Below the pieces are notes generated by a model that was not told the origin of the DNA, made no database searches, and worked only from the letters and a program-made list of their open reading frames with translations. Below, one piece after another: positions 1 to 34,871 of a DNA stretch of 64,000 bases. A program made the position numbers and the translations under genes. The stretch is from an uncultured Thermoleophilia bacterium (GTDB taxonomy: Bacteria > Actinomycetota > Thermoleophilia > UBA2241), in the NCBI GenBank assembly GCA_963699725.1, contig CAVOVA010000001.1, forward strand, positions 5,836-69,835, in the 5' to 3' direction. Each line of letters begins with the position of its first letter. Position 1 is the first letter of the stretch.

Positions 1-714
1 GGCGGCCGCGACGACCGCCCCGACGTCGAGGGGCTTGACGGTGTGGACGTGCACCAGGTGCACCGAGACGCCCTCGGCGGCGAGTAGCTCGGCGGCCTCC
101 ACGGCGCGGCCGACCATGATGCCCGTGGTGAGCACCGTCACGTCGGTGCCCTCGCGCACCAGGACGGCGCGGCCGATCTCGAACGGGTCGCTCTCGGCGA
201 ACACCACGGGGCTGGGATCACGTGTCGCCCGAAGGTACACGGGGCCCTCCCAGGCGGCGACGGCGTGCACGGCCTTGCCCATCTCGACGCCGTCGCCGGG
301 CGACACCACGGTCATGTTGGGCATGGACCGCATGAGGGCGACGTCCTCGATCGCCTGGTGCGTCTTGCCGGTCTTGCCGGCGAGCAGGCCGCTGTAGGCG
401 CCGGCGATCTTGACCGGCAGGCCCGGCTGAGCGATCGAGACGCGGATCTGGTCGGCGGCGCGCAGCGTCGCGAACACGGCGAAGGAGTTGGTGAAGGGCA
501 CGAAGCCCATCGCCGCGAGACCGGCGGCGGCGCCGGTCATGTTGGCCTCGGCGACGCCCATCTGGAAGAACCGCCGCGGGTACGCTTCGGCGAACAGGAT
601 CATCTTGCTCGACGAGGCAAGGTCGGCGTCGAGGCAGACGACGCGCTCGTCACGCGCGCCCAGCTCGACCAGCGCCTTGCCGAAGGCGTCGCGCTGTGCC
701 ATCAGCTCCGTCAT
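1..714 (-). CDS. Transketolase, C-terminal (pyrimidine-binding) subunit; 3' end cut by window edge
   Basis: Absent from the ORF track because it has no stop inside the window. My translation of the minus strand from ATG 712-714 gives MTELMAQRDAFGKALVELGARDERVVCLDADLASSSKM...FFQMGVAEANMTGAAAGLAAMGF...MRSMPNMTVVSPGDG. ATGA start/stop overlap with the upstream N-terminal subunit gene. Confidence 0.85.
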   Translation of the reverse strand, partial: MTELMAQRDAFGKALVELGARDERVVCLDADLASSSKMILFAEAYPRRFFQMGVAEANMTGAAAGLAAMGFVPFTNSFAVFATLRAADQIRVSIAQPGLPVKIAGAYSGLLAGKTGKTHQAIEDVALMRSMPNMTVVSPGDGVEMGKAVHAVAAWEGPVYLRATRDPSPVVFAESDPFEIGRAVLVREGTDVTVLTTGIMVGRAVEAAELLAAEGVSVHLVHVHTVKPLDVGAVVAAA

Positions 715-1553
715 CCGCCCTCCTCGCCGGCGCACAGCTCAGACAGCGCCCGATCGGCCAGGTCCTGCGAGATGGGTGCGGCGTGCCAGGCGCAGGTGTC
801 CTCCATGAAGGACACTCCCTTGCCCTTGACGGTATGGGCGACGATGACGCTGGGCCGGTCGCCGTCCTCTCGCGCCGCTTCGCAGGCCTCGGCCACGGCG
901 GTCGCGTCGTGGCCGTCCACCTCGGACACGAGCCAGTTGAAGGCGCGCCATTTGTCCGCGATGGGGTCGACCGGCATGACCGCACAGGTGTCGCCCATCA
1001 GCTGGATGCGGTTGTCGTCGACGATGGCGATGAGGTTGCCCAGCTCGAACTTGGGCGCCGCCATGGCGGCCTCCCACACCTGACCTTCCTGAAGCTCGCC
1101 GTCGCCGAGGAGCACGAAGATGCTCGTCTCGTCCAGGCCCCTGAGGCGCGCGCCGAGCGCCATGCCGAGTCCTGACGAGAGCCCCTGGCCGAGCGACCCG
1201 GAACTCATGTCCACGCCAGGGCAGTGCATGTCGGGGTGGGCCTGCAACAGTGAGTCCAACTCGTCGTAGGTCTCGAGCAGGGTCGTGGGGAAGTACCCGC
1301 GAAGGGCGAGAGCCGCGTAGTAGGCCGCCGCCGCGTGCCCCTTGGAGAGCACGAAGCGGTCGCGGCCGTCCCACTCGGGGTCCGCCGGATCGATGCGCAG
1401 GACGCGGAAGAACAGCGCAGTCAGGATCTCCACCGCACTCAGCGAGCCGCCGGGATGGCCGGCCTGGGCGCGGCACAGCGTTGCGACGATCAGCTTGCGC
1501 AGGTGGTTCGCGGTCTCCTGCAGGTCGGCCGCCGGGAGGGAGGATTCAGGCAA
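711..1553 (-). CDS. Transketolase, N-terminal (thiamine-diphosphate-binding) subunit
   Basis: ORF 711-1739. GHPGGSLS and GDGELQEG ThDP motifs. Start placed at TTG 1553, with GAGGAG 7 nt upstream; ATG 1592 is the alternative. Confidence 0.85.
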   Translation of the reverse strand: MPESSLPAADLQETANHLRKLIVATLCRAQAGHPGGSLSAVEILTALFFRVLRIDPADPEWDGRDRFVLSKGHAAAAYYAALALRGYFPTTLLETYDELDSLLQAHPDMHCPGVDMSSGSLGQGLSSGLGMALGARLRGLDETSIFVLLGDGELQEGQVWEAAMAAPKFELGNLIAIVDDNRIQLMGDTCAVMPVDPIADKWRAFNWLVSEVDGHDATAVAEACEAAREDGDRPSVIVAHTVKGKGVSFMEDTCAWHAAPISQDLADRALSELCAGEEGG

Positions 1554-1766
1554 TGAAGATCTCCTCGGTGTTCCGTAGAACGGAACAAGCATCCGAATGG
1601 TGGAATAGTCTGCATGATAGTCCCCTCGCGTGAGAAAGCAAGTGTTGGGGAATCTCGCGGGCCGACGGTCCAAGGCGCCCGCGCCGGAGAGGGCGCCGCG
1701 GCCTACGCGGCCGGGACAGGTCCACCCAGTGTCCCGCAAGCCGACCTGACATCAGCCCGGAACGCG

Positions 1767-2315
1767 ATGTTGGAGCCCCGCGGGTTCGAGAATGGCTTCT
1801 CGCCCGCCTGGGTGACCCAGCTCCTGCAGAACACCATGTTTCCCTCCTACGTCCTCTTCGTGAAGAGCCCGGGCCGCCTCCAGCCCGCCCTCGACCAGGC
1901 CATGTACCTGCGGGAGCACATGGTGCCGCTGCTGGTCGCCTCGGACGTGCATGATCTGAAGCTCGCACACGAGACGAAGAACATGCTGCTCAACGCCGAG
2001 ATGAAGCTGCGCGCCTCGCTGTTCCGCTCCGAGAGCCGGGGAACGCACTACCACGAGGACCGCCCGGCCCGCGACGACAAGAAGTGGCCTGCCTGGGTGC
2101 TGCTGCAGCGTGGAGACACGGGAGACATGAACCTGCGCAAACAGGCGATCCCGGCGGCGTGGAAAGCCGACCTGAGCACGTCATACACGACCCGCTACGC
2201 GCAGCGATTCCCGGGTGAGCTCGCGTATCTCGGTCTCGAGCAGGAAGGAAGGCGCCAATGGCTGTTCAGCAAGCCGACCACCGCCGCTGCATCGGCTGCA
2301 AGATCCGCCACGTGA
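1767..2315 (+). pseudogene. C-terminal fragment of an SdhA/FrdA/AprA-type FAD flavoprotein (N-terminal FAD domain missing)
   Basis: Only the C-terminal helical-domain signature is present (LNAEMKLRASLFRSESRGTHYHEDRPARDD). There is no room for a ~400-aa FAD domain before the divergent transketolase gene. The tail overlaps the next gene by 58 nt. Confidence 0.45.
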
Positions 2316-2479
2316 CCTGCCCGGCCGATGTGTTCCGCATCGAGTCCGGGACCGGGCGAGCGATCGCCAAGTATGCTACGGAGTGTCAGATCTGTCGCAG
2401 GTGTGAGAGCTTGTGCCCCGTCGGCGCTTCGTCCATCACGTCCGGCAGGTACATGCCGGACGTGACCTGCTGGGGGTAG
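2258..2479 (+). CDS. Small 4Fe-4S ferredoxin-domain protein
   Basis: 73 aa. One canonical CQICRRCESLCP group plus a degenerate CIGC...CP group. GGAAGGAAGG RBS just upstream of the ATG. Confidence 0.6.
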   Translation: MAVQQADHRRCIGCKIRHVTCPADVFRIESGTGRAIAKYATECQICRRCESLCPVGASSITSGRYMPDVTCWG

Positions 2480-2521
2480 CCGCCAGGAGGCTCAGGGGCG
2501 TCCGTCTCATCTCAAGGAGGA

Positions 2522-3217
2522 GTGCCAAACGTGGACTACGAGAGTCTCATGCGCGTCATCGGCAGCAGGCGCAGCTCCTGGCACTTCCGGTCAGACCCGG
2601 TACCCGACGCCGACATCGAGAGGATCGTCGACGCCGCCAGATACGCGCCCTCCGGGTTCAACAGCCAGCTCTGGGAGTTCGTGGTGATCACGGACCCGGG
2701 GCTGCGGAGCAGCGTCGTCGACATCGTGGCAGAGTCGGTGCCGCGGCCCCCGGCGGGGCGGGACTCGGCCCCGGCGCCGCGAGGCGAAGGCAGGATCCCG
2801 GTCAAGGACCCGTTGGGGTTCAGGACGGCCCCGGTGTTCATCCTCGTGCTCGGCGACACGAGAGTGAGACCGTTCGGCCCTCCTCCAGTGCGGGCGAACG
2901 ACAAGGCCTGGCATACCGTGTTCACGAGCACGCTCGCGGTGGCATACGAGCATATGCACCTGGCCGCCGCCGCTCTGGGGCTGGCGACGAGGTGGGTGTC
3001 GGCCGCGGGTGGCGCTCCGACTGCCTCGGCGATCCAGGGAGTGCTCGGCATCCCGGACGAACTCATGTTGTACGACATGATGGCGCTCGGCTTCTCGGAC
3101 TTCGAGCCCCTTCCCAAGAAGCTGCGGCCCCTCTCCGAGGTCCTCCACTACAATGCGTGCGGTAGCGGCGAGTTCCGGTCGCAGGCCGAGATCGAGGAGT
3201 ACTTCGCCGGGCGATGA
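2522..3217 (+). CDS. Nitroreductase-family protein
   Basis: 231 aa. RRSSWHF and RYAPSGFNSQLWEF blocks typical of the nitroreductase fold. AAGGAGG RBS before the GTG start. Confidence 0.8.
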   Translation: MPNVDYESLMRVIGSRRSSWHFRSDPVPDADIERIVDAARYAPSGFNSQLWEFVVITDPGLRSSVVDIVAESVPRPPAGRDSAPAPRGEGRIPVKDPLGFRTAPVFILVLGDTRVRPFGPPPVRANDKAWHTVFTSTLAVAYEHMHLAAAALGLATRWVSAAGGAPTASAIQGVLGIPDELMLYDMMALGFSDFEPLPKKLRPLSEVLHYNACGSGEFRSQAEIEEYFAGR

Positions 3218-3245
3218 CCGCGGCCCCGCGCGCGTGACCATCGGC

Positions 3246-3279
3246 GAGAGGGGCCGGGCCTTGCGGCCCGGCCCCTCTC
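3246..3279 (+). terminator. Perfect 15-bp GC-rich hairpin (loop TTGC) after the nitroreductase gene
   Basis: GAGAGGGGCCGGGCC-TTGC-GGCCCGGCCCCTCTC lies between convergent genes. There is no clear U-tract. Confidence 0.45.
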
Positions 3280-3320
3280 GGCTGCTCTACCAGAGGCACC
3301 GTCCGGCGCCCGAAGCACAC

Positions 3321-3352
3321 AAGGGCCCGGCTCCCAAAGGAGCCGGGCCCTT
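3321..3352 (-). terminator. Perfect 14-bp hairpin (loop CAAA) after the beta-subunit gene
   Basis: AAGGGCCCGGCTCC-CAAA-GGAGCCGGGCCCTT, located 17 nt downstream of the minus-strand stop at 3369. Confidence 0.45.
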
Positions 3353-3368
3353 CCCCCGATACTTCGGG

Positions 3369-4199
3369 TCAGGCCTTCCAGACCGCGATGTCGCCGACGT
3401 TGATGTCCTTGCTCGCGTCGACCGGGCCCATCTTCTGCGGCAGGTAGCCGTCTTTCTCGACGAGCACCGTGTACTCACCGGGCTCCACGTCGCGCAGCCA
3501 GAAGTCGCCGTAGCTGTCGGTGACGGCCTCGTACACTTTGCCGTTACCGACCTTCATGGCCTTGACCCTGGCGCCCTCGGTGCACTCGTCCACCTCAGGC
3601 TCGAACACGGCGCCGGCGATGAACGGCCTGGGCAGGCCGATGTAGTAGACCCGCGGCTTGACGTCGAGCTCCGGCTTGAGCGGCTCGGCCTTGACCACCA
3701 GTTCCTTGATCGCCGGGTCGTCCTCGTCGCCGAACGTGAACGCCCCGGTCGGGCAGGCGTCCACGCAGCGCGGCTCGGTCCAGCCGTCGTCCAGGAGGTG
3801 CGCGCAGAACGTGCACTTCTGGGCGATGTTCAGCGAGTCGTTGAAGTAGATGACGTCCTCGTACGGACACGCCTCGAGGCACAGCTGGTTGCCGCGACAG
3901 CGGTCGGGGTCGATGATCACGGCCCCGTCGTCGCGGCGGTAGATCGCCTCGACGTTGCAGGCCGGGATGCACGGCGCGTCGTCGCAGTGCTGGCAGATGC
4001 TGTGCATGTAGGTGACCTTGACCTTGGGCACCTGGCCGCGCTCGAGGTCGGTGATCTTGTTCCAGAACTGCCCCGTGTCCGGCTGGGGCTTCGCGATGGG
4101 CGACCAGTCGTTGCCGACGTGCTCGTCCTTGCAGGCCACCTGGCAGTTGTAGCAGCCGTTGCAGATGTTGAGATCGATGACGAGGACCTTGCCCATCAC
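3369..4199 (-). CDS. Fe-S beta subunit of a DMSO-reductase-family enzyme with a C-terminal beta-sandwich extension (BthL / resorcinol-hydroxylase small-subunit-like, divergent paralog)
   Basis: 276 aa. Cys groups CNGCYNCQVAC, CQHCDDAPCIPAC, CRGNQLCLEACP and CTFCAHLLDDGWTEPRCVDACP, followed by a ~90-aa non-Cys tail. GTGATG overlap with the alpha-subunit stop. Confidence 0.8.
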   Translation of the reverse strand: MMGKVLVIDLNICNGCYNCQVACKDEHVGNDWSPIAKPQPDTGQFWNKITDLERGQVPKVKVTYMHSICQHCDDAPCIPACNVEAIYRRDDGAVIIDPDRCRGNQLCLEACPYEDVIYFNDSLNIAQKCTFCAHLLDDGWTEPRCVDACPTGAFTFGDEDDPAIKELVVKAEPLKPELDVKPRVYYIGLPRPFIAGAVFEPEVDECTEGARVKAMKVGNGKVYEAVTDSYGDFWLRDVEPGEYTVLVEKDGYLPQKMGPVDASKDINVGDIAVWKA

Positions 4200-6793
4200 G
4201 CCCTCCCCCAGATGCAGGCTTCCAAGCCGGGACCGGCACAGGGGTGGAACGGCTTCTCGAACGCTTCCGGATACTTGGCCTTGAGCTCTTCCATGTCGGT
4301 CTTCTCACAGTCGGCGAGGAAGCCGCTCACGGCGTGACCCACGGCGTTCTTGGAGGTGGTACCGCGGGGCACGATGGTGTTGATCGCGCCGCCGCGGTCG
4401 ATCTCGCCGGGGACGATGGGGTCCCACTTGGCGCCGTGGTCGATGTAGATCACGCCGGGCATGATGCGCTCGGTGATGTACGCGCCGGCGAGCACGACGC
4501 CGCGGTCGTTGAAGATGCTGACCACATCGCCGTCCTTGATGCCACGCTTCTCGGCCTCGGACGGGTGGAGCCAGATCGGGTGGTACTGGTAGCCGTCGGG
4601 ACCGGTGACCTTGCAGGTCTTGATCTCGCGCAGCCAGGTGATGTCCTCGTGCTGGCTGTGGACGCTCCAGCGCGGGTGGTTGGAGCACACGAGCAGCGGA
4701 TACCGCTTGGAGCGCTCCGTACCGATGGTCTCCTCGTGCGTGACGCCCTGGGCGACCCACTTGGGCACCGGCGGCCGCTCGAGGTCGTTGGGGAAGTGCT
4801 CGACCAGGCCCGACGCCTCGAACTCGAGCTTGCCGGTCGGGGTGCTGAGCGGGTACTTCTCCGGGTCTTTGTAGAAGTTGTAGAAGCCGGCCGGCACCTC
4901 CTCCCAGCCGTTGTCGGTCGGGACCGCGTAGTAGCCCTTCTCATTGAGCTCTTCCCAGCTGATGAGGTCCTCACAGCGCGAGGTCTCGTAGCCGTACTTG
5001 ATGAGCTCGGGGATGGTCTTGCCGCCGGTGTACTCCTCCTTGAGGCCGAGGCGCTCGGAGAGCATGACGGCGATCTCGTAGTCGCTGTAGCTCTCACCGA
5101 GCGGCTCGATGCACTTCTGCTCGGGGAAGAGCAGGTTGTACTGGCCGCTGAAGATGTCGCCGGCGATGTCGTCCTCTTCGAGCTTGGTGTTCACGGGGAG
5201 GATGATGTCGGCCATCAGGCAGTCGTTCTCGAGCCAGGGGTGCTGGGCGAACATGAACTCGATGTCCGGGTGGCGCATGGCCTTGACGTAGTCGTTGCCG
5301 GCGTTCCAGCAGGTGATCCAGCTCGGCGAGTCGGTCCACACCATGTGGATCCTGGAGCAGCCATCGGCCGGGTACTTGTAGTGCTCGAACTGGTTGACGC
5401 GGTCGGCGGTCTCGGACTCGCAGCCCCACCAGTCGCACTCGCCCTCGAGGATGGCCTTGGGCACGTACGTCTTGGGCAGGAACGACGGGTGGTTGGACTC
5501 GTCCGGGTGACCGCCCGTGTAGGCCTTGCGCAGGTACGGCACGCGCAGCGGCTTGGGCTGGGCGTACTGGTCGGGCTTGTCGAACAGGCCCCACTCGATC
5601 ATCTTGGCCTGGTTCTGACCCGGCTTGCCCAGGCCCTGCATGGCGAGGCAGATGCCCTGCAGGCGGGCCGGTTCGGTGGCGTACGGGCCGCGGATGCCGG
5701 GGCCGCCGTTGCCGATGACGACCGTCGTGCGCTTGCTCGCCCACTCGTCGGCGAGGGCCTTGATGACGCGCGCTTTGACGCCGCAGATGGGCTCCGCCCA
5801 CTCCGGCGATTTCTCGACGCCGTCCTCTTCGCCCATGACGTAGGCCTCGTACTTGTCGACGCCCACGGCGTGCGTGGCGAGGTACTCCTTGTCGTAGGTG
5901 CCCTTCTTGAACCAGCGGTGCGTGATCGCCAGGTAGAGCGCGGCGTCGGTGTTGGGGAGCACCGGGATCCAGCGGTCGGCGTGCACGGCGGCGGCGTAGT
6001 TGAGGTCGGGGCACACGTAGATCTGCTTGATGCCGATCTCGCTCCACCAGTAGCTCAGGCGGCTCGGGAGCTGGCCCTGCCAGCCCCACGGGGTCGTCTC
6101 CTGGTCGCAGCCCCAGAACAGCAGCAGCTCGGCGTTCTTGGAGATGTCCCAGAGCAGGTTGCTCTGCTGGCCCTGGCCGACGGGCTCGCAGCCCCAGAAG
6201 TGCTTGTTGCCCCACCACCAGCCTTCCCAGCTGTCCGGCTGGCGGATCTGGAGGGTGAAGCCGCCCCACGCGCGCAGCAGCTTGCGGCCGGCGCCGTGGC
6301 AGGCCTGGACGACCTTGTTCTCGCCGTGCTGGTCGCACTGGTAGAGCAGGGCCGTGGGGCCGTACTTCTCCTTGATGCGCCGCATCTCGCTGGTGACGAC
6401 GTCCAGCGCCTCGTCCCAGGAGATGCGCTTGTACTTGCTGACGCCGCGGTTCTGCGGGTTGCGCTCACCGTTCGGATCGAAGTCGACGCGCATCATCGGG
6501 TAGCGGATGCGCGCGGGGGAGTAGACACGCTTCTTGTAGGCGATGCTGTACGGTGGGATCAAGGTCTTCATGCTGGGTTCGAACGTGCTGCCGCGCACCT
6601 CGAACTTCCAGGGGTTCAGGTCCGCCTTCTTGTACTTCCAGTCGTAGTGCATCGGACGGATGCGGACGATCCTGCCGTCCTTGACGTCCACCATCGATGC
6701 ATTGGAGCCGTTCTCCGGGACGCCGCAGAAACTGATGTCTCTGATGAGCGTCTTCTCGCCGGAGGCTCCGGATGTCGTTCTGTCTTCCGCCAT
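4196..6793 (-). CDS. Molybdopterin (bis-MGD) oxidoreductase large subunit, transhydroxylase / resorcinol-hydroxylase-like (divergent paralog)
   Basis: ORF 4196-6868. Start set at ATG 6793 (GGAGG 7 nt upstream). Shares blocks with the 37695-40298 protein: DGRIVRIRPM, NPQNRGVSKY..ISWDEALD, PDSWEGWWWG, KCIEPLGESYSDYEI and NHPRWSVHSQ. No twin-arginine signal and no N-terminal Fe-S Cys motif. Confidence 0.8.
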   Translation of the reverse strand: MAEDRTTSGASGEKTLIRDISFCGVPENGSNASMVDVKDGRIVRIRPMHYDWKYKKADLNPWKFEVRGSTFEPSMKTLIPPYSIAYKKRVYSPARIRYPMMRVDFDPNGERNPQNRGVSKYKRISWDEALDVVTSEMRRIKEKYGPTALLYQCDQHGENKVVQACHGAGRKLLRAWGGFTLQIRQPDSWEGWWWGNKHFWGCEPVGQGQQSNLLWDISKNAELLLFWGCDQETTPWGWQGQLPSRLSYWWSEIGIKQIYVCPDLNYAAAVHADRWIPVLPNTDAALYLAITHRWFKKGTYDKEYLATHAVGVDKYEAYVMGEEDGVEKSPEWAEPICGVKARVIKALADEWASKRTTVVIGNGGPGIRGPYATEPARLQGICLAMQGLGKPGQNQAKMIEWGLFDKPDQYAQPKPLRVPYLRKAYTGGHPDESNHPSFLPKTYVPKAILEGECDWWGCESETADRVNQFEHYKYPADGCSRIHMVWTDSPSWITCWNAGNDYVKAMRHPDIEFMFAQHPWLENDCLMADIILPVNTKLEEDDIAGDIFSGQYNLLFPEQKCIEPLGESYSDYEIAVMLSERLGLKEEYTGGKTIPELIKYGYETSRCEDLISWEELNEKGYYAVPTDNGWEEVPAGFYNFYKDPEKYPLSTPTGKLEFEASGLVEHFPNDLERPPVPKWVAQGVTHEETIGTERSKRYPLLVCSNHPRWSVHSQHEDITWLREIKTCKVTGPDGYQYHPIWLHPSEAEKRGIKDGDVVSIFNDRGVVLAGAYITERIMPGVIYIDHGAKWDPIVPGEIDRGGAINTIVPRGTTSKNAVGHAVSGFLADCEKTDMEELKAKYPEAFEKPFHPCAGPGLEACIWGRA

Positions 6794-6865
6794 ACTCTGA
6801 CCTCCGCTCGTCGATGGCCCGGCCGCCGCGGGGCTGGAACGGGAGCCTCCGCGGGACGTTGTCCG

Positions 6866-6925
6866 CAATGCGGATTAGCACGACCGCATCACGGGCATGT
6901 TCCATCGCCCGGAGCTCAGTGTCAA
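6866..6925 (-). promoter_or_regulatory. Candidate promoter (-35 TTGACA) plus palindrome ATGCGG-N10-CCGCAT upstream of the alpha1/beta1 operon
   Basis: The minus strand reads TTGACAC-N..-CCCGTGATGCGGTCGTGCTAATCCGCATTGCGG. The same layout occurs at 37560-37616. Confidence 0.4.
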
Positions 6926-6966
6926 GTGTCCGCGGCGCGGCCGGCGGCGGGGCGCGCCAGGCGCCG

Positions 6967-8046
6967 TCACGCCGGCCCCGGGGCCTGCGGTCCGGGGCCA
7001 GCGGAGTCCCCCTCGAGCCCCAGCAGGTAGTCGCCCGGACGGCTGCCCACCACCAGGCGCGTCGTCTCCCGTCCGTCGCGCCAGATCGCGCGTTCCAGCG
7101 CGCCGTACGCGCGGACCATCTGGCCGAACCGGGCCTGTTCGGCGAAGCGTCCGCGATACGAGATCACTTCACGTACGTCCTCGGCGCGGGCGCCGTCGAG
7201 CGACCGCACTTCATCGAGCGAGTAGCGGCAGGGGGTGAACAACGCGTCGCGGTCGTCGGTCACTCGCGCCTCCACCAGCGCCATGCCTGCCGGCGCGAAG
7301 CGTGGGTCGCCGTAGCGCTCCGGCACCTCGGCCGGCAGCTTGACGAAACGGATGAAATAGGGCCGGCCGGCGAAGCGGCCCTCGTTGACCTTGCGCGCCT
7401 GCAGCCGGACGAAATCGGCGGCGGAGAGCGGCGTGTCTTCGCGGTGTACGGCGTGGATCGCCTCGAGTTCCTCGTCCCGGGGGCGCGCCAGCCCGGACGA
7501 GGGATCCTCCAGCAGGCGCGTGAGCGTCGCGTGCACCCTGCGGCCGTCCTGGTCGCCGTACACGACGAGGTCGATGTCCGACGCCGGCGCGTGGAGGCCG
7601 AAGAGCAGAGAGCCCGTCAGGCCGAAGGCGGCCGGCGACGCACCGGCGGCGTCGCGCAGGAGTTCAGCGAACGCGAGGGCATCTGCCTCGAGCGAGTCGA
7701 CGGGCCCGTCCACGCGGAGGCGCCGCAGCCGCTCGCGGGGGTCGTAGACGCGCACGATCTCCTTCCACGGCACGGCCTCCACCGGGACGCCGAGCTCCGG
7801 ATCCTCGACGCGGTAGGAGAGGTTGCGCGCGCGCAGCGCTTCCTGCTGCTCCGCGACGCTGTAGACGCGGCGAAACCGGTCTCGTCCGCGCGCGCGCTCT
7901 CCGCGGGGATCGAGCACGTACCGCAGGTAGGCGACGACGCGGTCGGGGGGGTGTATCACCCCCTTGACGGTGAACAGCAGGCCGTCGGCGGTCTCGACGG
8001 CGGCGCCTTCTACCGCCGATCCGCGCCACTTCTCGTCCGCGGACAT
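6967..8046 (-). CDS. Pol-beta-superfamily nucleotidyltransferase-domain protein, function unknown
   Basis: ORF 6967-8052. ATG 8046 has GAGGAG 6 nt upstream. GLTGSLLFGLHAPASDIDLVVYG matches the G[SG]-x9-13-DxD NTase motif. N-terminal LLFTVKGVIHPPDRVVAYLRY resembles archaeal predicted nucleotidyltransferases, from memory only. Confidence 0.55.
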   Translation of the reverse strand: MSADEKWRGSAVEGAAVETADGLLFTVKGVIHPPDRVVAYLRYVLDPRGERARGRDRFRRVYSVAEQQEALRARNLSYRVEDPELGVPVEAVPWKEIVRVYDPRERLRRLRVDGPVDSLEADALAFAELLRDAAGASPAAFGLTGSLLFGLHAPASDIDLVVYGDQDGRRVHATLTRLLEDPSSGLARPRDEELEAIHAVHREDTPLSAADFVRLQARKVNEGRFAGRPYFIRFVKLPAEVPERYGDPRFAPAGMALVEARVTDDRDALFTPCRYSLDEVRSLDGARAEDVREVISYRGRFAEQARFGQMVRAYGALERAIWRDGRETTRLVVGSRPGDYLLGLEGDSAGPGPQAPGPA

Positions 8047-8124
8047 TCTCAACTCCTCGCTTGTGTGGTCGCCCGAGGCGCGTGTACGCTGGCGGGCGTC
8101 GAAGAGAGGCGAGTGACGGTCGGC

Positions 8125-8835
8125 ATGGATCTACTCATCAGCGTGATCGACGAGGCCGAAGTCCATCCGGCCGTGGCCGGCGGCGCGGACATCGTAGATG
8201 TGAAGAACCCAAGGGAAGGCTCGCTCGGCGCCAACTTCCCGCATGTGATCCGGCGCATCCGCATGCTCACCCCGGCCGCCGTCCCGGTGAGCGTCGCCAT
8301 CGGGGACTTCCCCAACCTGCCCGGGACGGCCGCTCTGGCCGCGGCGGGGGCCGCCGCTTGCGGCGTGCAGTACGTGAAGGTCGGGCTCCTGGGACCGCAG
8401 GACCACGACGAGGCCTTCGCCGTGCTCTCCGCGGTCTGCCGCGCCGCGCGCGACGAGACTCCCGGCGTCCGCGTCATGGCGGCCGCCTACGCAGAGGCGC
8501 GCGCGACCGGTTCGCTCTCGCCCGGGGAGCTGCCGGCCGTCGCCGCGGCGGCGGGGGCCGACGGCTGCATGATCGACACGCTCGGCAAGGGAGGGGTGAC
8601 GCTGTTCACCGAGTTGGCCGCGGCCGAACTCGAGCGCTTCGTGACCAGCTGCCGGGAGGCGCGGCTCCTGTGCGCCATGGCCGGCTCTCTGAGGGCCTCC
8701 GACGTGCCGCGGCTCCGCGAGCTTGCGCCGGACATCGTCGGCGTGCGCGGCGCCGTCTGCAGCGGCGGTCGCCGCGACGGCAAGCTCGACAGCGAGGCCG
8801 TGCTGCGTCTCAAGGAGCTCGTGGCGCAAGTCTGA
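8125..8835 (+). CDS. mfnB: (5-formylfuran-3-yl)methyl phosphate synthase (MfnB / DUF556, orf20-type)
   Basis: C-terminal 236 aa of ORF 6772-8835, from ATG 8125. MDLLISVIDEAEV..AGGADIVDVKNPREGSLGANFP...VGVRGAVC closely follows M. jannaschii MfnB as I recall it. Confidence 0.8.
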   Translation: MDLLISVIDEAEVHPAVAGGADIVDVKNPREGSLGANFPHVIRRIRMLTPAAVPVSVAIGDFPNLPGTAALAAAGAAACGVQYVKVGLLGPQDHDEAFAVLSAVCRAARDETPGVRVMAAAYAEARATGSLSPGELPAVAAAAGADGCMIDTLGKGGVTLFTELAAAELERFVTSCREARLLCAMAGSLRASDVPRLRELAPDIVGVRGAVCSGGRRDGKLDSEAVLRLKELVAQV

Positions 8836-9475
8836 CCCCCTCCGTGTGTCCCGTCTCGAGCAGTTCCGTGAGCCGTTGCGGATGATCGCCGTCGATCGCC
8901 CAGAGGTCGAACGGCGCATCGCCGAGCAGCTCGGCCAGGTGACCGTCGACGCCGCGGGACGCCGCGATCTCGGCGAGCGTCAAGACGCCCGCGAGGCCGT
9001 CCGCAGCCGCGGCCGCCAGGCTCGCCATGCCGTGGCGATCCTTCAGCAGCACGAGAAGGCGCCCGCGCAGCTGCCGCGTCAGCCACGCCGCGATGGAGTC
9101 CGAGGTCACCGACCAGGTGTGGGGCAGGGGATCGGCCTGCCGCAGCGGCTCCGACGGGAGGAGGACGACGGCGCCACTGCCGTCGGCGAGGCGCTCGCCT
9201 GCCTCGTGGAGGGTGCGCGCAACCTCGGCGCCGGGCGTCAGATCGGCCAGGAGGAGCCCGTACTGGTCCATGGCGAGGATGGCCATCCAGTGGGCGGTGT
9301 CCGGCTGAAGCCCGAACCGCTCGTCGAGATCGCGCACGACGTCGGCGGAAGCTCCGCCGCCGGGCACGACCAGAAGGCCACGGTCACGGCCCGCTGTGGC
9401 CAGGCGCGCACACACAGTCCGCAGGGACGCGGTCCGGGCCAGGCTTCCCCCCACCTTGACGACCGCGTCGATCAC
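8810..9475 (-). CDS. mfnE: Amino-acid-kinase-family protein, MfnE-like ([5-(aminomethyl)furan-3-yl]methyl phosphate kinase, orf21-type)
   Basis: VIDAVVKVGGSL and LVVPGGGASAD motifs. Start is GTG 9475, in a GTGA overlap with the upstream gene stop. Confidence 0.7.
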   Translation of the reverse strand: MIDAVVKVGGSLARTASLRTVCARLATAGRDRGLLVVPGGGASADVVRDLDERFGLQPDTAHWMAILAMDQYGLLLADLTPGAEVARTLHEAGERLADGSGAVVLLPSEPLRQADPLPHTWSVTSDSIAAWLTRQLRGRLLVLLKDRHGMASLAAAAADGLAGVLTLAEIAASRGVDGHLAELLGDAPFDLWAIDGDHPQRLTELLETGHTEGVRLAPRAP

Positions 9476-10563
9476 GGTTGCGCGCCTTGCGGGCCCGGCC
9501 CGCCGCCGGGGTCCGATCCGGCCGCCAGAGCCGCCCCCAGGAGGCGGGCGACGGCGGCGGCCGGCAGGGCGGCGCCCTCCGCCCCCCACAGGGCGCCCGG
9601 GGGCAGCACGTCGAGGCCGAGGCGGCCCGCGATCTCCGTCGCCAGAAAGGCGCCGGCGCCGGCGGGGGCGACGGGGACCGTGGCGGGCTCCCCCCAGCGC
9701 GACAGGACCTGGAGAAGCCCGTCGCCGATCACCTGCAACTGTCGTTCGCTCACGTAGCGCGCGAGCGCGACGATCTCGCCCTCACTCAGCGTCTCGCGAT
9801 CGGCGCAGACGAGGCGCGCCAGCCGCTCGGCGGACGCGGTCCGCGAGACGGCTCGTCCGTCGGGCGTGGTACAGACGTAGTCATCGGCGGCGATCCGCCC
9901 CAGCAGCAGGTAGGCGTCCGCCATCACCGCGAACTGCTCCGCCGCGAGACGGCACGGACGGCCGCGGATGGGCACGGTGGCCGTGAGCGTGTTGGGGTTG
10001 GTGCGCAGGACCCCGGTGTAGATCAGCTCGCCGGCGATGAGGCGGTCGAGGTCCGTGCGTCCTTCGCAGGCGAGACGACCCTCCCGGATCGGGACGATGT
10101 CGGTGGTCGTGCTTCCCACGTCCATGAGGATGCACGCATCGACGCGCGAGGCGGCGAGCAGGGCCGAGGCGACCCAGTTCGTGGCCGCGAACGCGAGCGG
10201 TCGCGTGCGCGCCGCGGGCAGCGGCGTGAGTTGGCCGTCACAGTCGAGCGCGAAGATGCGGCTCCCGGGGAAGGCGTCGACGAGTCCGTCCATCACGAAC
10301 CGCACCCCTTCACGCTTGTCCCGGAACGCGTCCGAGAGTTCGGCCGTCATCGTCAGCGCGTGCGGTGTGGAGTCGTCGACGGCGAGCTCCTCCGCCAGAT
10401 CCTTCAGGACGCCGGGGAGGCGATCGCGTCCGCGCCACATCTCGAGCGCGCGCACGGCGGTCCGCACCACGGGGGGACCGCCGGGCCGTGACTCCACCCG
10501 GGCAGCCTTGACCTGCACGCCACCTACGTCCCATCCGACGGTGACGATGGCCTCAGGGTCCAT
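9472..10563 (-). CDS. mfnF: Hydantoinase/oxoprolinase-like ASKHA protein, H4MPT-linked C1 pathway family (MfnF-like, orf22-type)
   Basis: WDVGGVQVK and MDVGSTTTDIVPI ASKHA phosphate motifs. ATG 10563 has GGAGG 7 nt upstream and lies just before the stop of the upstream gene. Confidence 0.7.
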   Translation of the reverse strand: MDPEAIVTVGWDVGGVQVKAARVESRPGGPPVVRTAVRALEMWRGRDRLPGVLKDLAEELAVDDSTPHALTMTAELSDAFRDKREGVRFVMDGLVDAFPGSRIFALDCDGQLTPLPAARTRPLAFAATNWVASALLAASRVDACILMDVGSTTTDIVPIREGRLACEGRTDLDRLIAGELIYTGVLRTNPNTLTATVPIRGRPCRLAAEQFAVMADAYLLLGRIAADDYVCTTPDGRAVSRTASAERLARLVCADRETLSEGEIVALARYVSERQLQVIGDGLLQVLSRWGEPATVPVAPAGAGAFLATEIAGRLGLDVLPPGALWGAEGAALPAAAVARLLGAALAAGSDPGGGPGPQGAQP

Positions 10564-11596
10564 CACTCCACCTCCCCCCGAACGCCGCCGAAGGCGGTGA
10601 GACGACCGCGGCCGGCAGGACGCCGTCCCGGCACGCGTCCCAGACCGCCGCCGCCATGTTGAGTGCGATCACGCGGCGCAATCCGACATACGACGTCGTC
10701 GGCCGCGGGTTGATCTCGATCAGCCAGCACGTCTCCCTGCCGAGTACCAGATCGACGCCGACATACCCACGCAGGCCGGGCACCAGGGCGACGGCCTTTC
10801 GCGCGAGCTCGCGTGCCTCCTCGCTTCGCGGGTGAGGCAACGAGGCGACCCCGCCATCGTACGCGAACGGCACCCCCGCTCGCACCCGCTGGCTGTTCAG
10901 ACTCAGCGCGATCGAACGCTCCTCGGCGACCAGCAGCGAGACGCTGGCCGCCTGACCCTCCACGTACTTCTGCACGAGCACGGAGGTCGCCGTGAGGAGG
11001 GCGGGCTGACGCAAGGCCCCTCCGAGCGCTGCTTGGTTCGCGGCCAGGCCGACGCCGTCGCACCCGGCGCCGTCGAGCGGCTTGACGACGACGGGGTAGC
11101 CGATAGACGCCGCGGCCGCCGCGGCGTCGGCCGGGACGACGCAGAGCGTCGCCGGCGTCGGCAGGCCGGCGCGCACGAAGCGGCGATGGCACTCCCACTT
11201 GTCCGCGGCGACGGCGACCGCCGCCGCCGGGCTGCCGAGAAGCGCGACGCCGGCGTCCGACAGAAGGTCGCTCACGCGTTCGAGCGCGCCCTCGCCCTCG
11301 GGGGCGACCACCAGCGCCGCTCCGCACTCGCGACCGAGCTCCAGCAGTGTTTCGAGGTACACTTCGGAGTCGACATCGACGATGCGATCGGCGTCCAGTC
11401 CCGGCGTCGGCAGACGCCGGTCGCGCGTGGTCACCACGGTGAATCTGCCCCACGACCGCAGGTCCGCCAGCAGGGCCCGCAAGAGGGCCAGGGCCTCCGT
11501 GGCGAGCCCGTTCGGAATGCGCGGCCCCGGCCATCCGCCGCCGGTGACGTACTCGTGCACGAGGATCGCTGAGGGGAGAGTCGACGTGGATGCCAT
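10553..11596 (-). CDS. mfnD: ATP-grasp ligase, MfnD-like (tyramine-L-glutamate ligase family)
   Basis: ILVHEYVTGGG N-terminus, PVVVKPLDGAGCDGV and WLIEINPRPTTS ATP-grasp blocks. Start is ATG 11596. Confidence 0.6.
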   Translation of the reverse strand: MASTSTLPSAILVHEYVTGGGWPGPRIPNGLATEALALLRALLADLRSWGRFTVVTTRDRRLPTPGLDADRIVDVDSEVYLETLLELGRECGAALVVAPEGEGALERVSDLLSDAGVALLGSPAAAVAVAADKWECHRRFVRAGLPTPATLCVVPADAAAAAASIGYPVVVKPLDGAGCDGVGLAANQAALGGALRQPALLTATSVLVQKYVEGQAASVSLLVAEERSIALSLNSQRVRAGVPFAYDGGVASLPHPRSEEARELARKAVALVPGLRGYVGVDLVLGRETCWLIEINPRPTTSYVGLRRVIALNMAAAVWDACRDGVLPAAVVSPPSAAFGGRWSDGP

Positions 11597-12347
11597 TCCG
11601 GTCCTAGACCTCATGGGAGGTCGAGTGGTGCAGGGCCTCCGCGGCGAGCGGCAGGCCTATCAGCCGGTGCGCAGTGCGCTGGTCGCGGGCTGCGATCCCG
11701 TGACCATCGCGCGGGCGCTGTGCGGCGCCTGCGGCGGCAAGGTCGTGTACATCGCCGACCTCGACGCCATCACGGGCACCGGCGACCATCTCGAGACCGT
11801 CGGGGAACTCGCCGACGGTCTCGGGGTTGAGCCCTGGGTTGACGCGGGCGTCAGCGGCGAGGAGGCCGCGGCCCGGCTGCTCGAGGCGGGCGCCGCGCGC
11901 GTGATCGTCGGCACCGAGACCCTCTCCGAGATCGGGGCGTTGCGCGGGCTTCGCGGCGCCCTGCCCGCGGGGCAGCTCATCGTCAGCCTCGACGTGGGCG
12001 CCGGCGGCGTGATCAGCAGGTGCCCATCGCTGCGCGGCCGTGCGCCGCTGGAAGCACTGGAGGTGCTCGTCGCCGAGGGCGTTGAAGACATCATCCTGCT
12101 CGCCCTGACCCAGGTCGGCACGGGAGCCGGGCCGGACGCCGGGACGCTGAGGGCGGCCCGAGCGGCGTTTCCACGGCTGCGCCTGGTCGCGGCCGGCGGC
12201 GTGCGCGACCCCGGGGACCTGCGTCTCCTCGCGGCGGCCGGCGCCGACGGCGTGCTGCTCGCGACGGCGCTTCATCGCGGCTGGATCACGCCGGCCGATA
12301 TCCGCGCGGCGCGGTCGGACGGTCGCTCGCTCACCAGCGGGCCGTGA
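11586..12347 (+). CDS. HisA/HisF-family (beta/alpha)8 barrel protein of the H4MPT-associated subgroup
   Basis: AIPVLDLMGGRVVQG...VYIADLDAI...AAGGVRDPGDL. GTG 11586 is preceded by GAGGGGAG. Confidence 0.7.
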   Translation: MDAIPVLDLMGGRVVQGLRGERQAYQPVRSALVAGCDPVTIARALCGACGGKVVYIADLDAITGTGDHLETVGELADGLGVEPWVDAGVSGEEAAARLLEAGAARVIVGTETLSEIGALRGLRGALPAGQLIVSLDVGAGGVISRCPSLRGRAPLEALEVLVAEGVEDIILLALTQVGTGAGPDAGTLRAARAAFPRLRLVAAGGVRDPGDLRLLAAAGADGVLLATALHRGWITPADIRAARSDGRSLTSGP

Positions 12348-13224
12348 GGGCGGGCACGTCGCCGAGCAAGCCGCCCTCCGTCAGAGCGACGAACAGCGAC
12401 GCCGCGATGAGGTCGGCCGTCGTGCCGGGGTTCAGCGCGTGAGCCTGATCGCCGAGCTCGGCAGACAGATCGCCGAGGCCGGCGCGTCCCGCGACGGTCG
12501 CGGTTCCTCCGGCGGCGAGGACGCGCGCCGCGCGTCGTGACACGTCCTCCGCCACGGCCACGCCGTTCTTGCGCGCGATCAGCGTGTCGGGGGTCTCGGC
12601 GAGGATCGTGAGGAACGCCGTCAGGACCGCCTCGGAGAACCTGGCGCCGTCGTCCCAGCAGCGCAGGACCGTTTCCGCGCCAAGCGTGAAGGTGAGCTGG
12701 AAATCGGTGACGTACTCACGGGCGATGGCATCGCGCTCGCGCGCTGCGTCCATGGCCTCCAGCAGGGTCACGCTGACCTCACGCTCGTGGACGTCGTGGC
12801 GGTCGGTCTCTCCCATGCCGGCGGGAGCGGCGGCCCGGATGGCCTCGTAAGCCAGGACCGCATCCCGCACCGTCAGCGATCTGAGGACCCCGGCCAGCTC
12901 CCGACGCAGGTCGCCTCCTCCGGCGGGCATACCCGCGGCGGCGTTCGCCAAGGGCGCGAGCAGCAGGATCAGCCCCAGATTGGTGTTGACGGCGACGAGA
13001 CGGCGCGTGTCGGCCGCGGCCCTGGCGATCGTCGCGCCCACCGCGGCCCTCCCGGCGTCGCGCAGCGCGGGACCGATCGCCACCGCGCTGGTCAGGAAGT
13101 CCTCGAAGCGCATGTCGGTGAAGGGGCTGCGTGGCGACACGTTCCCAGGCTTCTCGATGCTGGCCTCGAACAGGCACGCGAGCTGCGCCGCCCACGCGAT
13201 CTCGGCGCTCGTCAGCCGCTTCAT
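12331..13224 (-). CDS. Triphosphoribosyl-dephospho-CoA synthase (CitG/MdcB) family protein, H4MPT-cluster orf7-type
   Basis: LACLFEASIEKPGNVSP...NTNLGLILLLAPL...NPGTTADLIAASLF. ATGA overlap with the upstream mptN stop. Confidence 0.75.
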   Translation of the reverse strand: MKRLTSAEIAWAAQLACLFEASIEKPGNVSPRSPFTDMRFEDFLTSAVAIGPALRDAGRAAVGATIARAAADTRRLVAVNTNLGLILLLAPLANAAAGMPAGGGDLRRELAGVLRSLTVRDAVLAYEAIRAAAPAGMGETDRHDVHEREVSVTLLEAMDAARERDAIAREYVTDFQLTFTLGAETVLRCWDDGARFSEAVLTAFLTILAETPDTLIARKNGVAVAEDVSRRAARVLAAGGTATVAGRAGLGDLSAELGDQAHALNPGTTADLIAASLFVALTEGGLLGDVPALTARW

Positions 13225-14093
13225 GCGGACCCTTCGAGGACGTGGTCGACCAGGCACTGCGCGGCATCGACACCGGTGGCCGCGCGTAGCGCACGCCAGC
13301 CCGGGATCGTGTTGACCTCGATGACGCTGTACTCGCCGTCGTCGCCCGGGAGGATGTCGACGCCGGCGTGCTCGGCGCCCACGACCCGCGTCGCTCGCAG
13401 GCTCAAGGCGGCCACCCGATCATCCGGCTCGAACGGCTCCGCTTTGGCGCCCTGCGCCGCGTTCGTCTTCCAGCCGTCACCGCGGCGCATCATCGCCCCG
13501 ACGACGCGCTCGCCGACGACGAAGACGCGGATGTCCGCGTGGCCGTGAGGCACGAACTCCTGGAGGCAGTAGATGTAGCGGCCCAATTCGAGCGCGCGGA
13601 ACGCGCGGTACGCCGTGTCCGCGTCGGTGAGTCGTACGATGCCCCTGCCCTCGGAGCCGAACAGGGGCTTGACGACGACGTCGCCGCCGAGCGCTTCGTA
13701 GGCAGTCATGGCGTCTTCGAAGCGCTCGGCCACGATGGTGCGCGGCGTCGGCAGGCCGGCGTCGTGAAGCCTCGCGGAGGTGTAGTACTTGTCCACGCCG
13801 TGTTCGATGGCCGTCGCCGAGTTGACCACCCTCGCGCCGGAGTGCTCGAGCATGCGAAGGGCGTCCATGCGGAAGATGACCTGCTCCAGCGAGCCGGCCG
13901 GGATGGCGCGCACGAACACCACGTCGAACCCGTCCAGCGTGACGCCGCCGGCCGTGAGGCGTGGGCTGTGGTCGACGCCGGCGGTCAGCTGCATGACCGG
14001 GTAGCACTCCGTCTCGATGCCCCGGCGTGCCAAGGCCGAGCGGAGGCTCTCGGTGTGCCAGCCTCCCTTCTGGCCCAGGATGGCGGCCTTCAC
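13221..14093 (-). CDS. mptN: RimK-type ATP-grasp, tetrahydromethanopterin:alpha-L-glutamate ligase-like
   Basis: Part of ORF 13221-14573, from GTG 14093 (GTGA overlap with the mch stop). VVKPLFGSEGRGI and VIEVNTIPGW motifs. Confidence 0.75.
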   Translation of the reverse strand: MKAAILGQKGGWHTESLRSALARRGIETECYPVMQLTAGVDHSPRLTAGGVTLDGFDVVFVRAIPAGSLEQVIFRMDALRMLEHSGARVVNSATAIEHGVDKYYTSARLHDAGLPTPRTIVAERFEDAMTAYEALGGDVVVKPLFGSEGRGIVRLTDADTAYRAFRALELGRYIYCLQEFVPHGHADIRVFVVGERVVGAMMRRGDGWKTNAAQGAKAEPFEPDDRVAALSLRATRVVGAEHAGVDILPGDDGEYSVIEVNTIPGWRALRAATGVDAAQCLVDHVLEGSA

Positions 14094-15055
14094 GCGAAGA
14101 AGGACTGCCGGAGGACCTCCGGGTTCACTCCGCCGGCGCGGAAGGTGCGCCCGCTCGTCATGTTGGTGATCGTGACCTCCGCAGGGCTGAACAGCAGTGG
14201 GTCGATCTTGTAGAAGTCGTGGTCGTACCGCCGGAACAGCTCGCCGAAGGTGGTGCCGTAGTCCTTCGACGAGGCGGACGGAAGCTGCTCGATGATGCTC
14301 TCCACCTGCTCGTCGTCGGCCTGCACCGTGTACCAGGCGCGTCCTCCGTAGAGCACCCCGTCGTTCGTGCGGCCGATGGCGGTGAGGTCGTCGGCGGCGA
14401 TCGGCGCCAGCGGGCAGGAACCGAAGCCCGAGCGCAGTGTGCCGATGTCGAACCCCACCTCGTGCATCTTGTGGATGCCGGTCTCGACGACGCGCGCTGC
14501 GATCTGCACCGAGCCGACGATGCAGGCGGTGGGCGCCACCAGCAGGTGGAGCCTGTCCGGAGCCACGCCGCACTTCCCGGCGATCCAGTCGGTCGCCCCG
14601 AGCGGCGGCAGCGTTCTCGACTCCAGGGTGAGGACGGCGGCGTCCGCCGGATCGCGGTACTCGATGTCGGAGAAGATCGGGTCGCCCTGGTAGTGCGCCC
14701 GTGCCGGACCCGAGCCCATCGCGAAGTACGACTTGGTGTCGTCGGTCTTCGGTGTCTTCACGGCCCAGCCGGCGTACTGCGAGGCCATGCAGGCCACTAC
14801 CGGATGGCTCACGCCGACCTCGACGCCGGGCAGCGCCAGGTCATCAAGGTGAAGCTCACGCATCTGGACGCTGCCGAGGCCGCCGAGGCAGATCTCGGCG
14901 AAGAGGCGGCCGGCCGCGAGGGAGCCCCAGGCTTCGATGCCGCAATCGAGGACGGTGACGCCGTTCTCGTACTCCGAGACGGCGACGCCGTACGCCTCCT
15001 CGGCGTCCACGAGTCGCCGGCAGATGTCGCGCGCACGGTCGTTCACGCTAAGCAC
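14090..15055 (-). CDS. mch: Methenyl-tetrahydromethanopterin cyclohydrolase
   Basis: 321 aa. Full-length similarity, recalled, to Mch: VLDCGIEAWGSLAAG...SQYAGW...AMGSGPARA...GRTNDGVLYGG. Confidence 0.9.
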   Translation of the reverse strand: MLSVNDRARDICRRLVDAEEAYGVAVSEYENGVTVLDCGIEAWGSLAAGRLFAEICLGGLGSVQMRELHLDDLALPGVEVGVSHPVVACMASQYAGWAVKTPKTDDTKSYFAMGSGPARAHYQGDPIFSDIEYRDPADAAVLTLESRTLPPLGATDWIAGKCGVAPDRLHLLVAPTACIVGSVQIAARVVETGIHKMHEVGFDIGTLRSGFGSCPLAPIAADDLTAIGRTNDGVLYGGRAWYTVQADDEQVESIIEQLPSASSKDYGTTFGELFRRYDHDFYKIDPLLFSPAEVTITNMTSGRTFRAGGVNPEVLRQSFFA

Positions 15056-16830: not shown

Positions 16831-16836
16831 GAGAGG

Positions 16837-34868: not shown

Positions 34869-34871
34869 GTC

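Follow-up and report, generated by a model that had tools for sequence, protein, structure and literature searches.

Why would a genome that already encodes a phenol transhydroxylase keep a second, divergent enzyme of the same family, and what might this second enzyme do? The question is raised by a stretch of 64,000 nucleotides (the window, i.e. all the DNA analysed here) from an uncultured Thermoleophilia bacterium (GenBank assembly GCA_963699725.1, contig CAVOVA010000001.1). It encodes two molybdenum (Mo) enzymes, each made of a large and a small subunit: pair 1 (alpha1/beta1), which adjoins genes of one-carbon (C1) metabolism, and pair 2 (alpha2/beta2), which lies further along the window. 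The original prediction, made from the letters of the window, held that the pyrogallol-transhydroxylase/resorcinol-hydroxylase family is represented here twice, with pair 1 as the divergent copy, to which no substrate could be assigned. Both points stand, the former on domain architecture and identity between the pairs; alpha1 falls outside both characterised clades. Here, alpha1 is placed by its sequence in a third, uncharacterised branch of the PgtL/RhL family, and pair 1 is a real, expressed and strongly constrained unit. With a probability of about 0.5, it would carry out a redox reaction, the hydroxylation or dehydroxylation of an aromatic that stems from polyphenols, rather than AthL-type transhydroxylation, electrons passing via beta1 to or from a soluble partner.

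Pair 1 shares its domain order with pair 2 and with AthL/BthL (also PgtL/PgtS), the pyrogallol-phloroglucinol transhydroxylase (EC 1.97.1.2) of Pelobacter acidigallici (PDB entry 4v4c), including the AhtL-like and CarboxypepD_reg-like domains. In Pfam terms, both alphas are built as AhtL-like_1st + Molybdopterin + Molydop_binding (in alpha1, PF21423 with 43.1 bits for a cut-off of 27, PF00384 and PF01568), and both betas as Fer4_11 + CarboxypepD_reg (PF13620). The AhtL-like N-terminal domain of alpha1 stands where the domain of the FS0 iron-sulfur cluster would be, and this region has one Cys only. The alphas are 35% identical over 855 aa (E=3e-144) and the betas 42% identical (E=1e-67), and three blocks are common to both pairs: PDSWEGWWWG in alpha1 for PDSWEGWHWG in alpha2, KCIEPLGESYSDYEI in pair 1 for KCVEPLGESKSDYDI in pair 2, and NHPRWSVHSQ in alpha1 for PHPRFSFHTM in alpha2, while CDQHGENK of alpha1 stands against CSSHHLWGN of alpha2. 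All the strings quoted in the original prediction are present where it had located them, and the two pairs are alike far beyond chance. Its view that both alphas lack a twin-arginine translocation (TAT) signal and are cytoplasmic, as AthL is, is also supported, since no twin-arginine motif was found in alpha1, in alpha2 or in the longer open reading frame (ORF) upstream of alpha1.

The two genes of pair 1 (Table 1) overlap by 4 bp (GTGA). The window has a G+C content of 68.6% and real ORFs were chosen with a filter on G+C at third codon positions (GC3). The ATG of alpha1 is preceded, 8 nt 5' of it, by GGAGG, and its ORF reaches upstream to a TTG at 6868. A hairpin found by eye after beta1 is likely to be the terminator of a bicistronic unit; a scan for consensus promoters and terminators called no sigma-70 promoter for alpha1 and did not list this hairpin. 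The G+C content of pair 1 (0.64–0.69) is lower than that of its neighbours (0.71–0.75). Its GC3 is high (0.94–0.96) and the lower G+C therefore reflects amino-acid composition; recent horizontal acquisition of pair 1 by this genome was rejected on the same ground.

A search of 1.84 billion representatives returned 6237 relatives. The best match of alpha1 in the PDB is AthL (4v4c_A, E=2.7e-134), and beta1 matches BthL with E=2.9e-51, but AthL belongs to the other major branch of the family: the two alphas are 35–38% identical, where orthology would call for the same clade and at least some 55% identity. A neighbour-joining tree was built from 66 sequences and bootstrapped 100 times; the alpha1 clade, its union with a sister clade and the union of both with relatives of 45–52% identity were each recovered in 100/100 replicates, and so was a separate branch of AthL and RhL from which alpha1 is excluded. 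RhL/RhS (RehLS), the resorcinol hydroxylase of Azoarcus (Aromatoleum) anaerobius, is the other characterised enzyme of the family. The sequence of RhL (A0N0U2) used here consists of residues 1–399, taken from the supplement of a published study (PMC7327174), and DbhL was not among the compared sequences. Over this N-terminal part, RhL is 58–60% identical to AthL and alpha2 and 63–64% identical to two environmental alphas (L023 and P0163), while its residues 47–399 are 41% identical to alpha1; RhL also keeps the SHH-WGN motif, which alpha1 lacks. Over the 399 residues available, identity and tree thus agree in leaving alpha1 outside the RhL clade, and the position outside any characterised clade on which the original prediction depended is supported. 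A literature search found no paper characterising the alpha1 clade or its branch.

The original prediction had spoken of type II dimethyl sulfoxide (DMSO) reductases, a label that does not fit, both alphas being Ser-ligand proteins without FS0 and close to DorA/TorA/BisC. Pair 1 has neither the Asp ligand and FS0 of type II enzymes nor their TAT-exported partner and adjoining gene for a gamma haem subunit, and alpha1 scores 141.5 bits with TIGR03479 (cut-off 984.75). DorA, TorA and BisC, likewise Ser-ligand alphas without FS0, are its nearest relatives beyond the family, but they are monomeric, with no beta, they form the outgroup of the tree and their models score far below the curated cut-offs (321.5 bits for 1017.55 with TIGR00509; 261–275 bits for 909 and 1465 with the TorA models).

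Two groups of relatives deserve a mention. Most of the alphas that are 40–52% identical to alpha1 (P0123–P0147) carry SRRDFL-type TAT signals, many with long Thr/Val-rich linkers before the catalytic domain, which suggests that they are exported and surface-tethered; together with the tree, these signals would mean that alpha1 arose as a cytoplasmic form within a branch whose members are mostly exported. The sister-clade alphas (L060–L080) are 65–70% identical to alpha1 and have the motif NDQH...GPH, and no beta gene was found within 10 kb of them. In several loci they are directly followed by a nitroreductase-family gene (e.g. 9986–12613, then 12651–13349 in L060), and the nitroreductase encoded in the window is 72% identical to that of L060.

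How far does alpha1 differ from AthL where it matters for catalysis? Ser147 of DMSO reductase is the textbook Mo ligand. In our alignments, Ser188 of alpha1 corresponds to Ser147 of the Rhodobacter (R. sphaeroides) enzyme (1eu1) and to residue 175 of AthL, within a PDSWEGW motif that is invariant across the alpha1 and AthL clades, in line with the listing of the PgtL/RhL-type family as Ser-coordinating (PMC10100899). The original prediction had sought the Ser ligand in CSSHHLWGN and taken CDQHGENK for its altered counterpart. This could not be upheld: both alphas keep the Ser in PDSWEGW, and the CDQHG segment does not match the Ser-ligand loop but carries, as His156, the equivalent of His144 of AthL, with D154, Q155, H156 and G157 invariant in the alpha1 clade. 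Judged from these alignments, alpha1 has lost no metal ligand.

The pocket is another matter. It was compared in three independent alignments, one of 163 sequences with MAFFT, one of 66 with L-INS-i and one of the clade profiles with hhalign. All three agree that alpha1 retains His144, His154, Asp174, Ser175 and Trp176 (AthL numbering). Tyr152 is replaced by Ala and Arg153 by Cys (Cys165, with hardly any exception in the clade); the GLGGWGG loop with Trp354 is lost through a deletion of four residues, and ANCSGYIPDNY with Tyr560 through one of ten; and in the hhalign result FPGYAEGGISGD of AthL faces KMIEWGLFDKPD of alpha1, Tyr404 becoming an invariant Met398. Every one of the pocket positions changed in alpha1 is invariant in the AthL clade. 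In AthL, the changed residues and loops are reported to line the sites of the phenol and its co-substrate, and Arg153, Tyr404 and Tyr560 are all missing from alpha1.

The small subunit differs from its crystallized counterpart as well. The cluster Cys of beta1 number 15 and fall into four groups: CxxCxxCxxxC (I), CxxCxxxxCxxxC (II), C-x5-C-x3-CP (III) and CxxC...CxxxCP (IV). The four groups claimed by the original prediction are therefore there, although group III (CRGNQLCLEACP) has three Cys and not four. Its spacing is that of the type II betas EbdB (2ivf_B, CKGHRHCVEACP) and PcrB (4ydd_B, CKGAQACVQSCP), which like NarH have four Cys groups, while PsrB and ArrB have CxxCxxCxxxCP and BthL has AKGKKELLDTCP. 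In the structures of type II enzymes, C-x5-C-x3-CP forms the [3Fe-4S] site FS4, and the shared spacing points to a distal site of this type in beta1, for which three [4Fe-4S] clusters plus a distal [3Fe-4S]-type site are predicted. The resemblance to type II betas, read from sequence motifs, stops there: beta1 (117.6 bits with TIGR03478) is much shorter, ends in a BthL-type C-terminal domain and pairs with a Ser-ligand alpha without FS0.

Three Cys are missing from BthL and beta2, namely the fourth in group II and the first and second in group III. By homology with NarH-type subunits, these would be the ligands of the distal cluster FS4; Cys81, Cys101 and Cys107 of beta1 are G, A and L in BthL, and a beta with three [4Fe-4S] clusters is what defines the true transhydroxylase. 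A census of 90 betas from related loci found all 15 Cys in 44 of the 47 betas of alpha1-type or sister alphas, and the three FS4 ligands absent from each of the 18 AthL-like betas scored. The Cys losses that the original prediction had noted in beta2 are thus real, but they are the normal state of BthL, and it is beta1 that departs from the crystallized enzyme. By this comparison, beta1 is the ancestral form, with its electron wire complete.

Pair 1 is under stronger constraint than the transhydroxylases it accompanies. In 231 genome pairs carrying both types, mean identity is 86% for alpha1 versus 69% for the best AthL-type alphas, and 85% versus 60% in distant genome pairs. DNA runs that contain the locus come from sediment, wetland and soil metagenomes. 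In four metatranscriptomes (ice, rice paddy, soil and sediment), contigs 85–99% identical to the window tile positions 3355–6792, stopping at both gene boundaries with coverage of about zero in both flanks; the same four also cover alpha2, beta2 and a gene of the aldehyde:ferredoxin oxidoreductase (AOR) family.

The clade is large and widespread. More than 5000 homologues of alpha1 were found, the top 120 of which, at 82–94% identity, belong to Thermoleophilia, other Actinomycetota, Chloroflexota/Dehalococcoidia and Aminicenantes metagenome-assembled genomes (MAGs). Species-representative genomes gave 79 loci, all of them from MAGs, and added Desulfobacteraceae, Geopsychrobacteraceae (L029, with an orthologue at 85%) and Korobacteraceae. 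Orthologues 81–97% identical to alpha1 occur across several phyla, and the window is closest (96–97%) to Thermoleophilia MAGs. Phage-integrase or transposase genes flank the cassette in two Chloroflexota-like or low-GC contigs (L002, at 13721–14566 and 618–1517; L028, at 5561–8458), as would be expected if the two genes spread horizontally as a unit.

With which genes does pair 1 travel? ORFs were called and clustered in all loci and counts were made in the 32 alpha1 loci of at least 15 kb. An AthL-type alpha lies within 10 kb of alpha1 in at least 16 of these. Families of the phloroglucinol pathway are present in 10, IclR genes in 11 and genes for a Peripla_BP_6 binding protein in 14. The linkage to polyphenol genes is seen in Actinomycetota, in Chloroflexota and in one Desulfobacteraceae MAG. 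Thermoleophilia loci typically have ModA, ModC and MobB genes, then pair 1, with an AthL-type pair just past it. In other Actinomycetota (L003/L040, L036, L078, L049 and L056), the genes run from cyclase through one or two AthL-type pairs, a flavodoxin-like gene and IclR to alpha1-beta1, followed by RidA, TatD and a Peripla_BP_6 ABC transporter. In Chloroflexota (L030, L032, L035 and L079), nitroreductase and RidA-like genes are divergent upstream and alpha1-beta1 is convergent with an AthL-like pair, next to which come BKACE, 3HCDH, cupin, cyclase and SDR genes. The recurrent genomic partner of pair 1 is the polyphenol pathway. The original prediction had stressed that pair 1 sits beside C1 rather than ring-cleavage genes, and this is true of the window, where its neighbours are genes for Mch, Ftr, FwdB/C/D-type subunits, an MtdB-like protein and pterin biosynthesis, and of four close relatives (L007, L013, L015 and L043), where tetrahydromethanopterin (H4MPT) genes likewise precede pair 1 in place of the Mod/Mob genes. 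In other lineages, it is found beside AthL-type and phloroglucinol genes. The proximity to C1 genes, limited to a few Thermoleophilia, is thus a trait of that lineage and may well be incidental.

In the window, the orthologue of AthL is not alpha1 but alpha2, which matches 4v4c_A over its full length (1214 bits; 270 bits for beta2 with BthL) and retains SSHH, YRH, PDSWEGW, PGYAE and Y560. Downstream of pair 2 come AOR-family, IclR, 3HCDH-like, BKACE, thiolase and two cyclase-family genes, which, the AOR gene excepted, are the gene families of the phloroglucinol pathway of Clostridium scatologenes (PMC10470551). On the strength of this end-to-end match and these neighbours, pair 2 is identified as an orthologue of the pyrogallol-phloroglucinol transhydroxylase, whose reaction, pyrogallol to phloroglucinol, depends on tetrahydroxybenzene, and alpha2 is the likely pathway partner of pair 1.

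What, then, might pair 1 do? We picture a self-contained bicistronic cassette encoding a cytoplasmic alpha-beta molybdenum (or tungsten) bis-pyranopterin enzyme that would not be a pyrogallol/tetrahydroxybenzene transhydroxylase. It would catalyse a net two-electron oxygen-atom transfer at Mo, i.e. the water-dependent hydroxylation of a hydroxylated aromatic derived from polyphenols, or in reverse its reductive dehydroxylation, and beta1 would pass the electrons to or from a soluble partner such as a ferredoxin or flavoprotein. The AthL-type transhydroxylase and the phloroglucinol pathway would belong to the same catabolic network. Such chemistry has a precedent in the family, RhL/RhS being a water-dependent, net-oxidative phenol hydroxylase that makes hydroxyhydroquinone from resorcinol and requires an electron acceptor.

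Several points weigh against this picture. Neither the substrate nor the direction of the reaction can be read from the sequence. The alignment of residues 386–445 varies with the method, although none preserves Tyr404. An AlphaFold2 model of alpha1, made from an alignment of 26 sequences almost all 81–91% identical, was too poor to check the pocket (mean pLDDT, the predicted local distance difference test, 48.6; pTM, the predicted template modelling score, 0.43). No partner protein consistently adjoins pair 1, half of the longer loci have no polyphenol genes within 10 kb and some lie among signalling genes or beside integrases. Finally, the complete wire of beta1 loses part of its force. RhL groups with AthL, and in L023 the beta that accompanies the closest RhL-like alpha has no distal cluster either; the AthL+RhL branch as a whole is therefore marked by the loss of FS4, which taken alone does not indicate redox-neutral chemistry. 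If RhS resembles this beta, a true redox hydroxylase works without FS4, and the distal cluster of beta1 may simply be ancestral, which would be no proof of redox chemistry. The argument that the distal cluster proves a redox function was weakened accordingly. In the L023 locus itself (positions 1–7308, from a Desulfobacteraceae MAG), this pair, with 64% identity between its alpha and the N-terminus of RhL, comes directly upstream of an alpha1-type pair that is 88% identical to alpha1.

A more specific version of the redox hydroxylase is tempting but rather improbable. Pair 1 could be a ‘primer’ enzyme, an acceptor-coupled, water-dependent hydroxylase converting pyrogallol or phloroglucinol to 1,2,3,5-tetrahydroxybenzene, or the reverse dehydroxylase controlling its pool. 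As far as we are aware, the cellular origin of this co-substrate has never been explained, and pair 1 would then supply what AthL-type transhydroxylases need for catalysis. A primer role would explain why the two kinds of enzyme are closely linked in different phyla, why the electron wire is intact and why conservation is unusually strong.

The same data have to be weighed under quite different functions. Pair 1 might be a genuine transhydroxylase for another pair of phenols, with Fe-S clusters that are structural, as is assumed for AthL/BthL; the hydroxyhydroquinone/tetrahydroxybenzene isomerisations reportedly described in Pelobacter massiliensis would be an example. It does belong to the same family and retains the Ser, Asp and His, tandem arrays of two or three transhydroxylase-like pairs are common, as sequential transhydroxylations would require, and an orthologue as close as 85% is found in the Geopsychrobacteraceae MAG. 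Yet the change of Tyr404 to Met and the deleted loops of Tyr560 and Trp354 concern the second phenol site, the identity to AthL is no higher than 35–38%, and the 15 Cys are strongly conserved whereas the transhydroxylase branch has lost a cluster. We consider a transhydroxylase possible but unlikely. Less likely still is a non-aromatic oxotransferase acting on an S-oxide, N-oxide or oxyanion, which would lie near transhydroxylase genes only through clustering of Mo uptake and cofactor genes. This would suit the many Thermoleophilia in which pair 1 comes after the ModA, ModC and MobB genes, the several loci without aromatic genes, the annotation of many homologues as trimethylamine N-oxide reductase by JGI and the top NCBIfam scores, which go to BisC, DmsA and TorA models, although all are far below the cut-offs. 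It is harder to square with the Chloroflexota and Actinomycetota pairs, which lie inside IclR-regulated phloroglucinol islands without Mod or Mob genes, and with the beta subunit, which the monomeric DorA, TorA and BisC do not have. Moreover, alpha1 has CDQH where a DorA/TorA-like protein (P0248) has its SYGW segment, which presumably holds the Tyr114/Trp116 positions of S-oxide reductases.

A service to C1 metabolism is suggested by the position of pair 1 next to the H4MPT/methanofuran block, shared with the four close relatives named above. Neither other Thermoleophilia nor any other phylum shows this arrangement, the cassette carries a ribosome-binding site and a terminator of its own, and the block already contains a dedicated FwdB/C/D-type set; such a role can hardly be credited, and it was rejected on the narrow range of the synteny. 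The redox hydroxylase or dehydroxylase is the reading retained here, and its electron partner is a natural question. Nitroreductase genes flank alpha1 in four Chloroflexota loci (L032, L035, L039 and L079), and the nitroreductase convergent with beta1 in the window is a possible redox partner, albeit weakly supported. A nitroreductase or flavodoxin-like partner is no more than a weak lead, as only a minority of loci have genes of this kind close to pair 1.

In genome and metagenome studies of anoxic soils, sediments and aquifers, all AthL-like genes are routinely tallied as ‘pyrogallol hydroxytransferase’, and pyrogallol fermentation is inferred from the tally (e.g. PMC3971608; PMC4959651). 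One of the two pairs commonly present is a separate enzyme with another pocket and another Fe-S complement. We know of only two members of the PgtL/RhL family whose reaction has been established. A reaction for the third branch would put right a widespread annotation and supply a further step in the anaerobic breakdown of polyphenols, a process with consequences for the carbon stored in peat and wetlands.

Table 1. Features of the window discussed in the text, with positions counted from its first nucleotide.
Feature	Positions	Strand	Description
alpha1	4196-6793	minus	865 aa; molybdenum-bis(pyranopterin guanine dinucleotide) (Mo-bisPGD) catalytic subunit; no TAT signal, no FS0 Cys motif
beta1	3369-4199	minus	276 aa; iron-sulfur subunit; C-terminal CarboxypepD_reg-like domain
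alpha1 codons P186-D187-S188-W189-E190-G191-W192	6218-6238	minus	Ser188, predicted Mo ligand; Asp187, equivalent of AthL Asp174
alpha1 codons C153-D-Q-H156-G-E-N-K160	6314-6337	minus	loop with conserved His156, equivalent of AthL His144
beta1 codons C101-RGNQL-C107-LEA-C111-P112	3864-3899	minus	Cys group III (CRGNQLCLEACP), three Cys
Hairpin	3312-3350	minus	perfect 12-bp G+C-rich stem, GGGCCCGGCTCC-TTTG-GGAGCCGGGCCC; T-rich tail; 18 nt past the beta1 stop
alpha1 5' intergenic region	6794-6966	minus	TTGACA hexamer at ~6920-6925; promoter not established
Nitroreductase-family flavoprotein	2522-3217	plus	PF00881; convergent with beta1
alpha2	37695-40298	plus	orthologue of Pelobacter acidigallici AthL; comparator
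beta2	~40292-41128	plus	BthL-type small subunit; no distal-cluster ligands; Asp for the fourth Cys of group I
AOR-family gene	41168-43060	plus	tungsto/molybdopterin enzyme; 40 bp past beta2
Tandem cyclase-family genes	48015-49656	plus	PF04199
Molybdate transporter and Mo-cofactor genes	31874-37490	minus	ModABC-type transporter, transaldolase, MobA-MobB fusion; directly upstream of alpha2
H4MPT/methanofuran C1 module	~8000-28000	minus	
DUF2193 gene and adjacent MIP-family channel gene	28669-31064	minus	very strong DUF2193 match (746 bits)

Other features of the window concern the surroundings of pair 2 and the C1 genes. The small subunit beta2 has CFLAD, in which Asp replaces the fourth Cys of group I. 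The same is true of 11 of the 18 AthL-like betas scored, while BthL has Cys. In NarH-type subunits this Cys is a ligand of cluster FS2, and the cluster of beta2-type betas may be Asp-ligated or a 3Fe cluster. The AOR-family gene is part of the transhydroxylase operon and is spanned by metatranscriptome contigs; no homologue was found near transhydroxylase pairs in 82 related loci. The tandem cyclase-family genes of the pair-2 cluster are candidates for dihydrophloroglucinol cyclohydrolase, but their identity to the cyclases of related loci is only 40–45%. In three close relatives (L005, L008 and L012), the Mo genes found here upstream of alpha2 sit between the two transhydroxylase-like pairs, and the window is therefore seen as a rearranged ‘Mo island’.

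The C1 module is full, with genes for Mch, Ftr and FwdB, for FwdC-like, FwdD-like and MtdB-like proteins, for an MptA-type GTP cyclohydrolase and for pterin-binding, ATP-grasp, CitG-like and DUF447 proteins. According to one review, Fhc complexes are found in aerobic methylotrophs exclusively. Between this block and the molybdate transporter lies the gene for a DUF2193 protein, of a family described as ‘conserved in archaea’, beside one for a channel of the MIP family.

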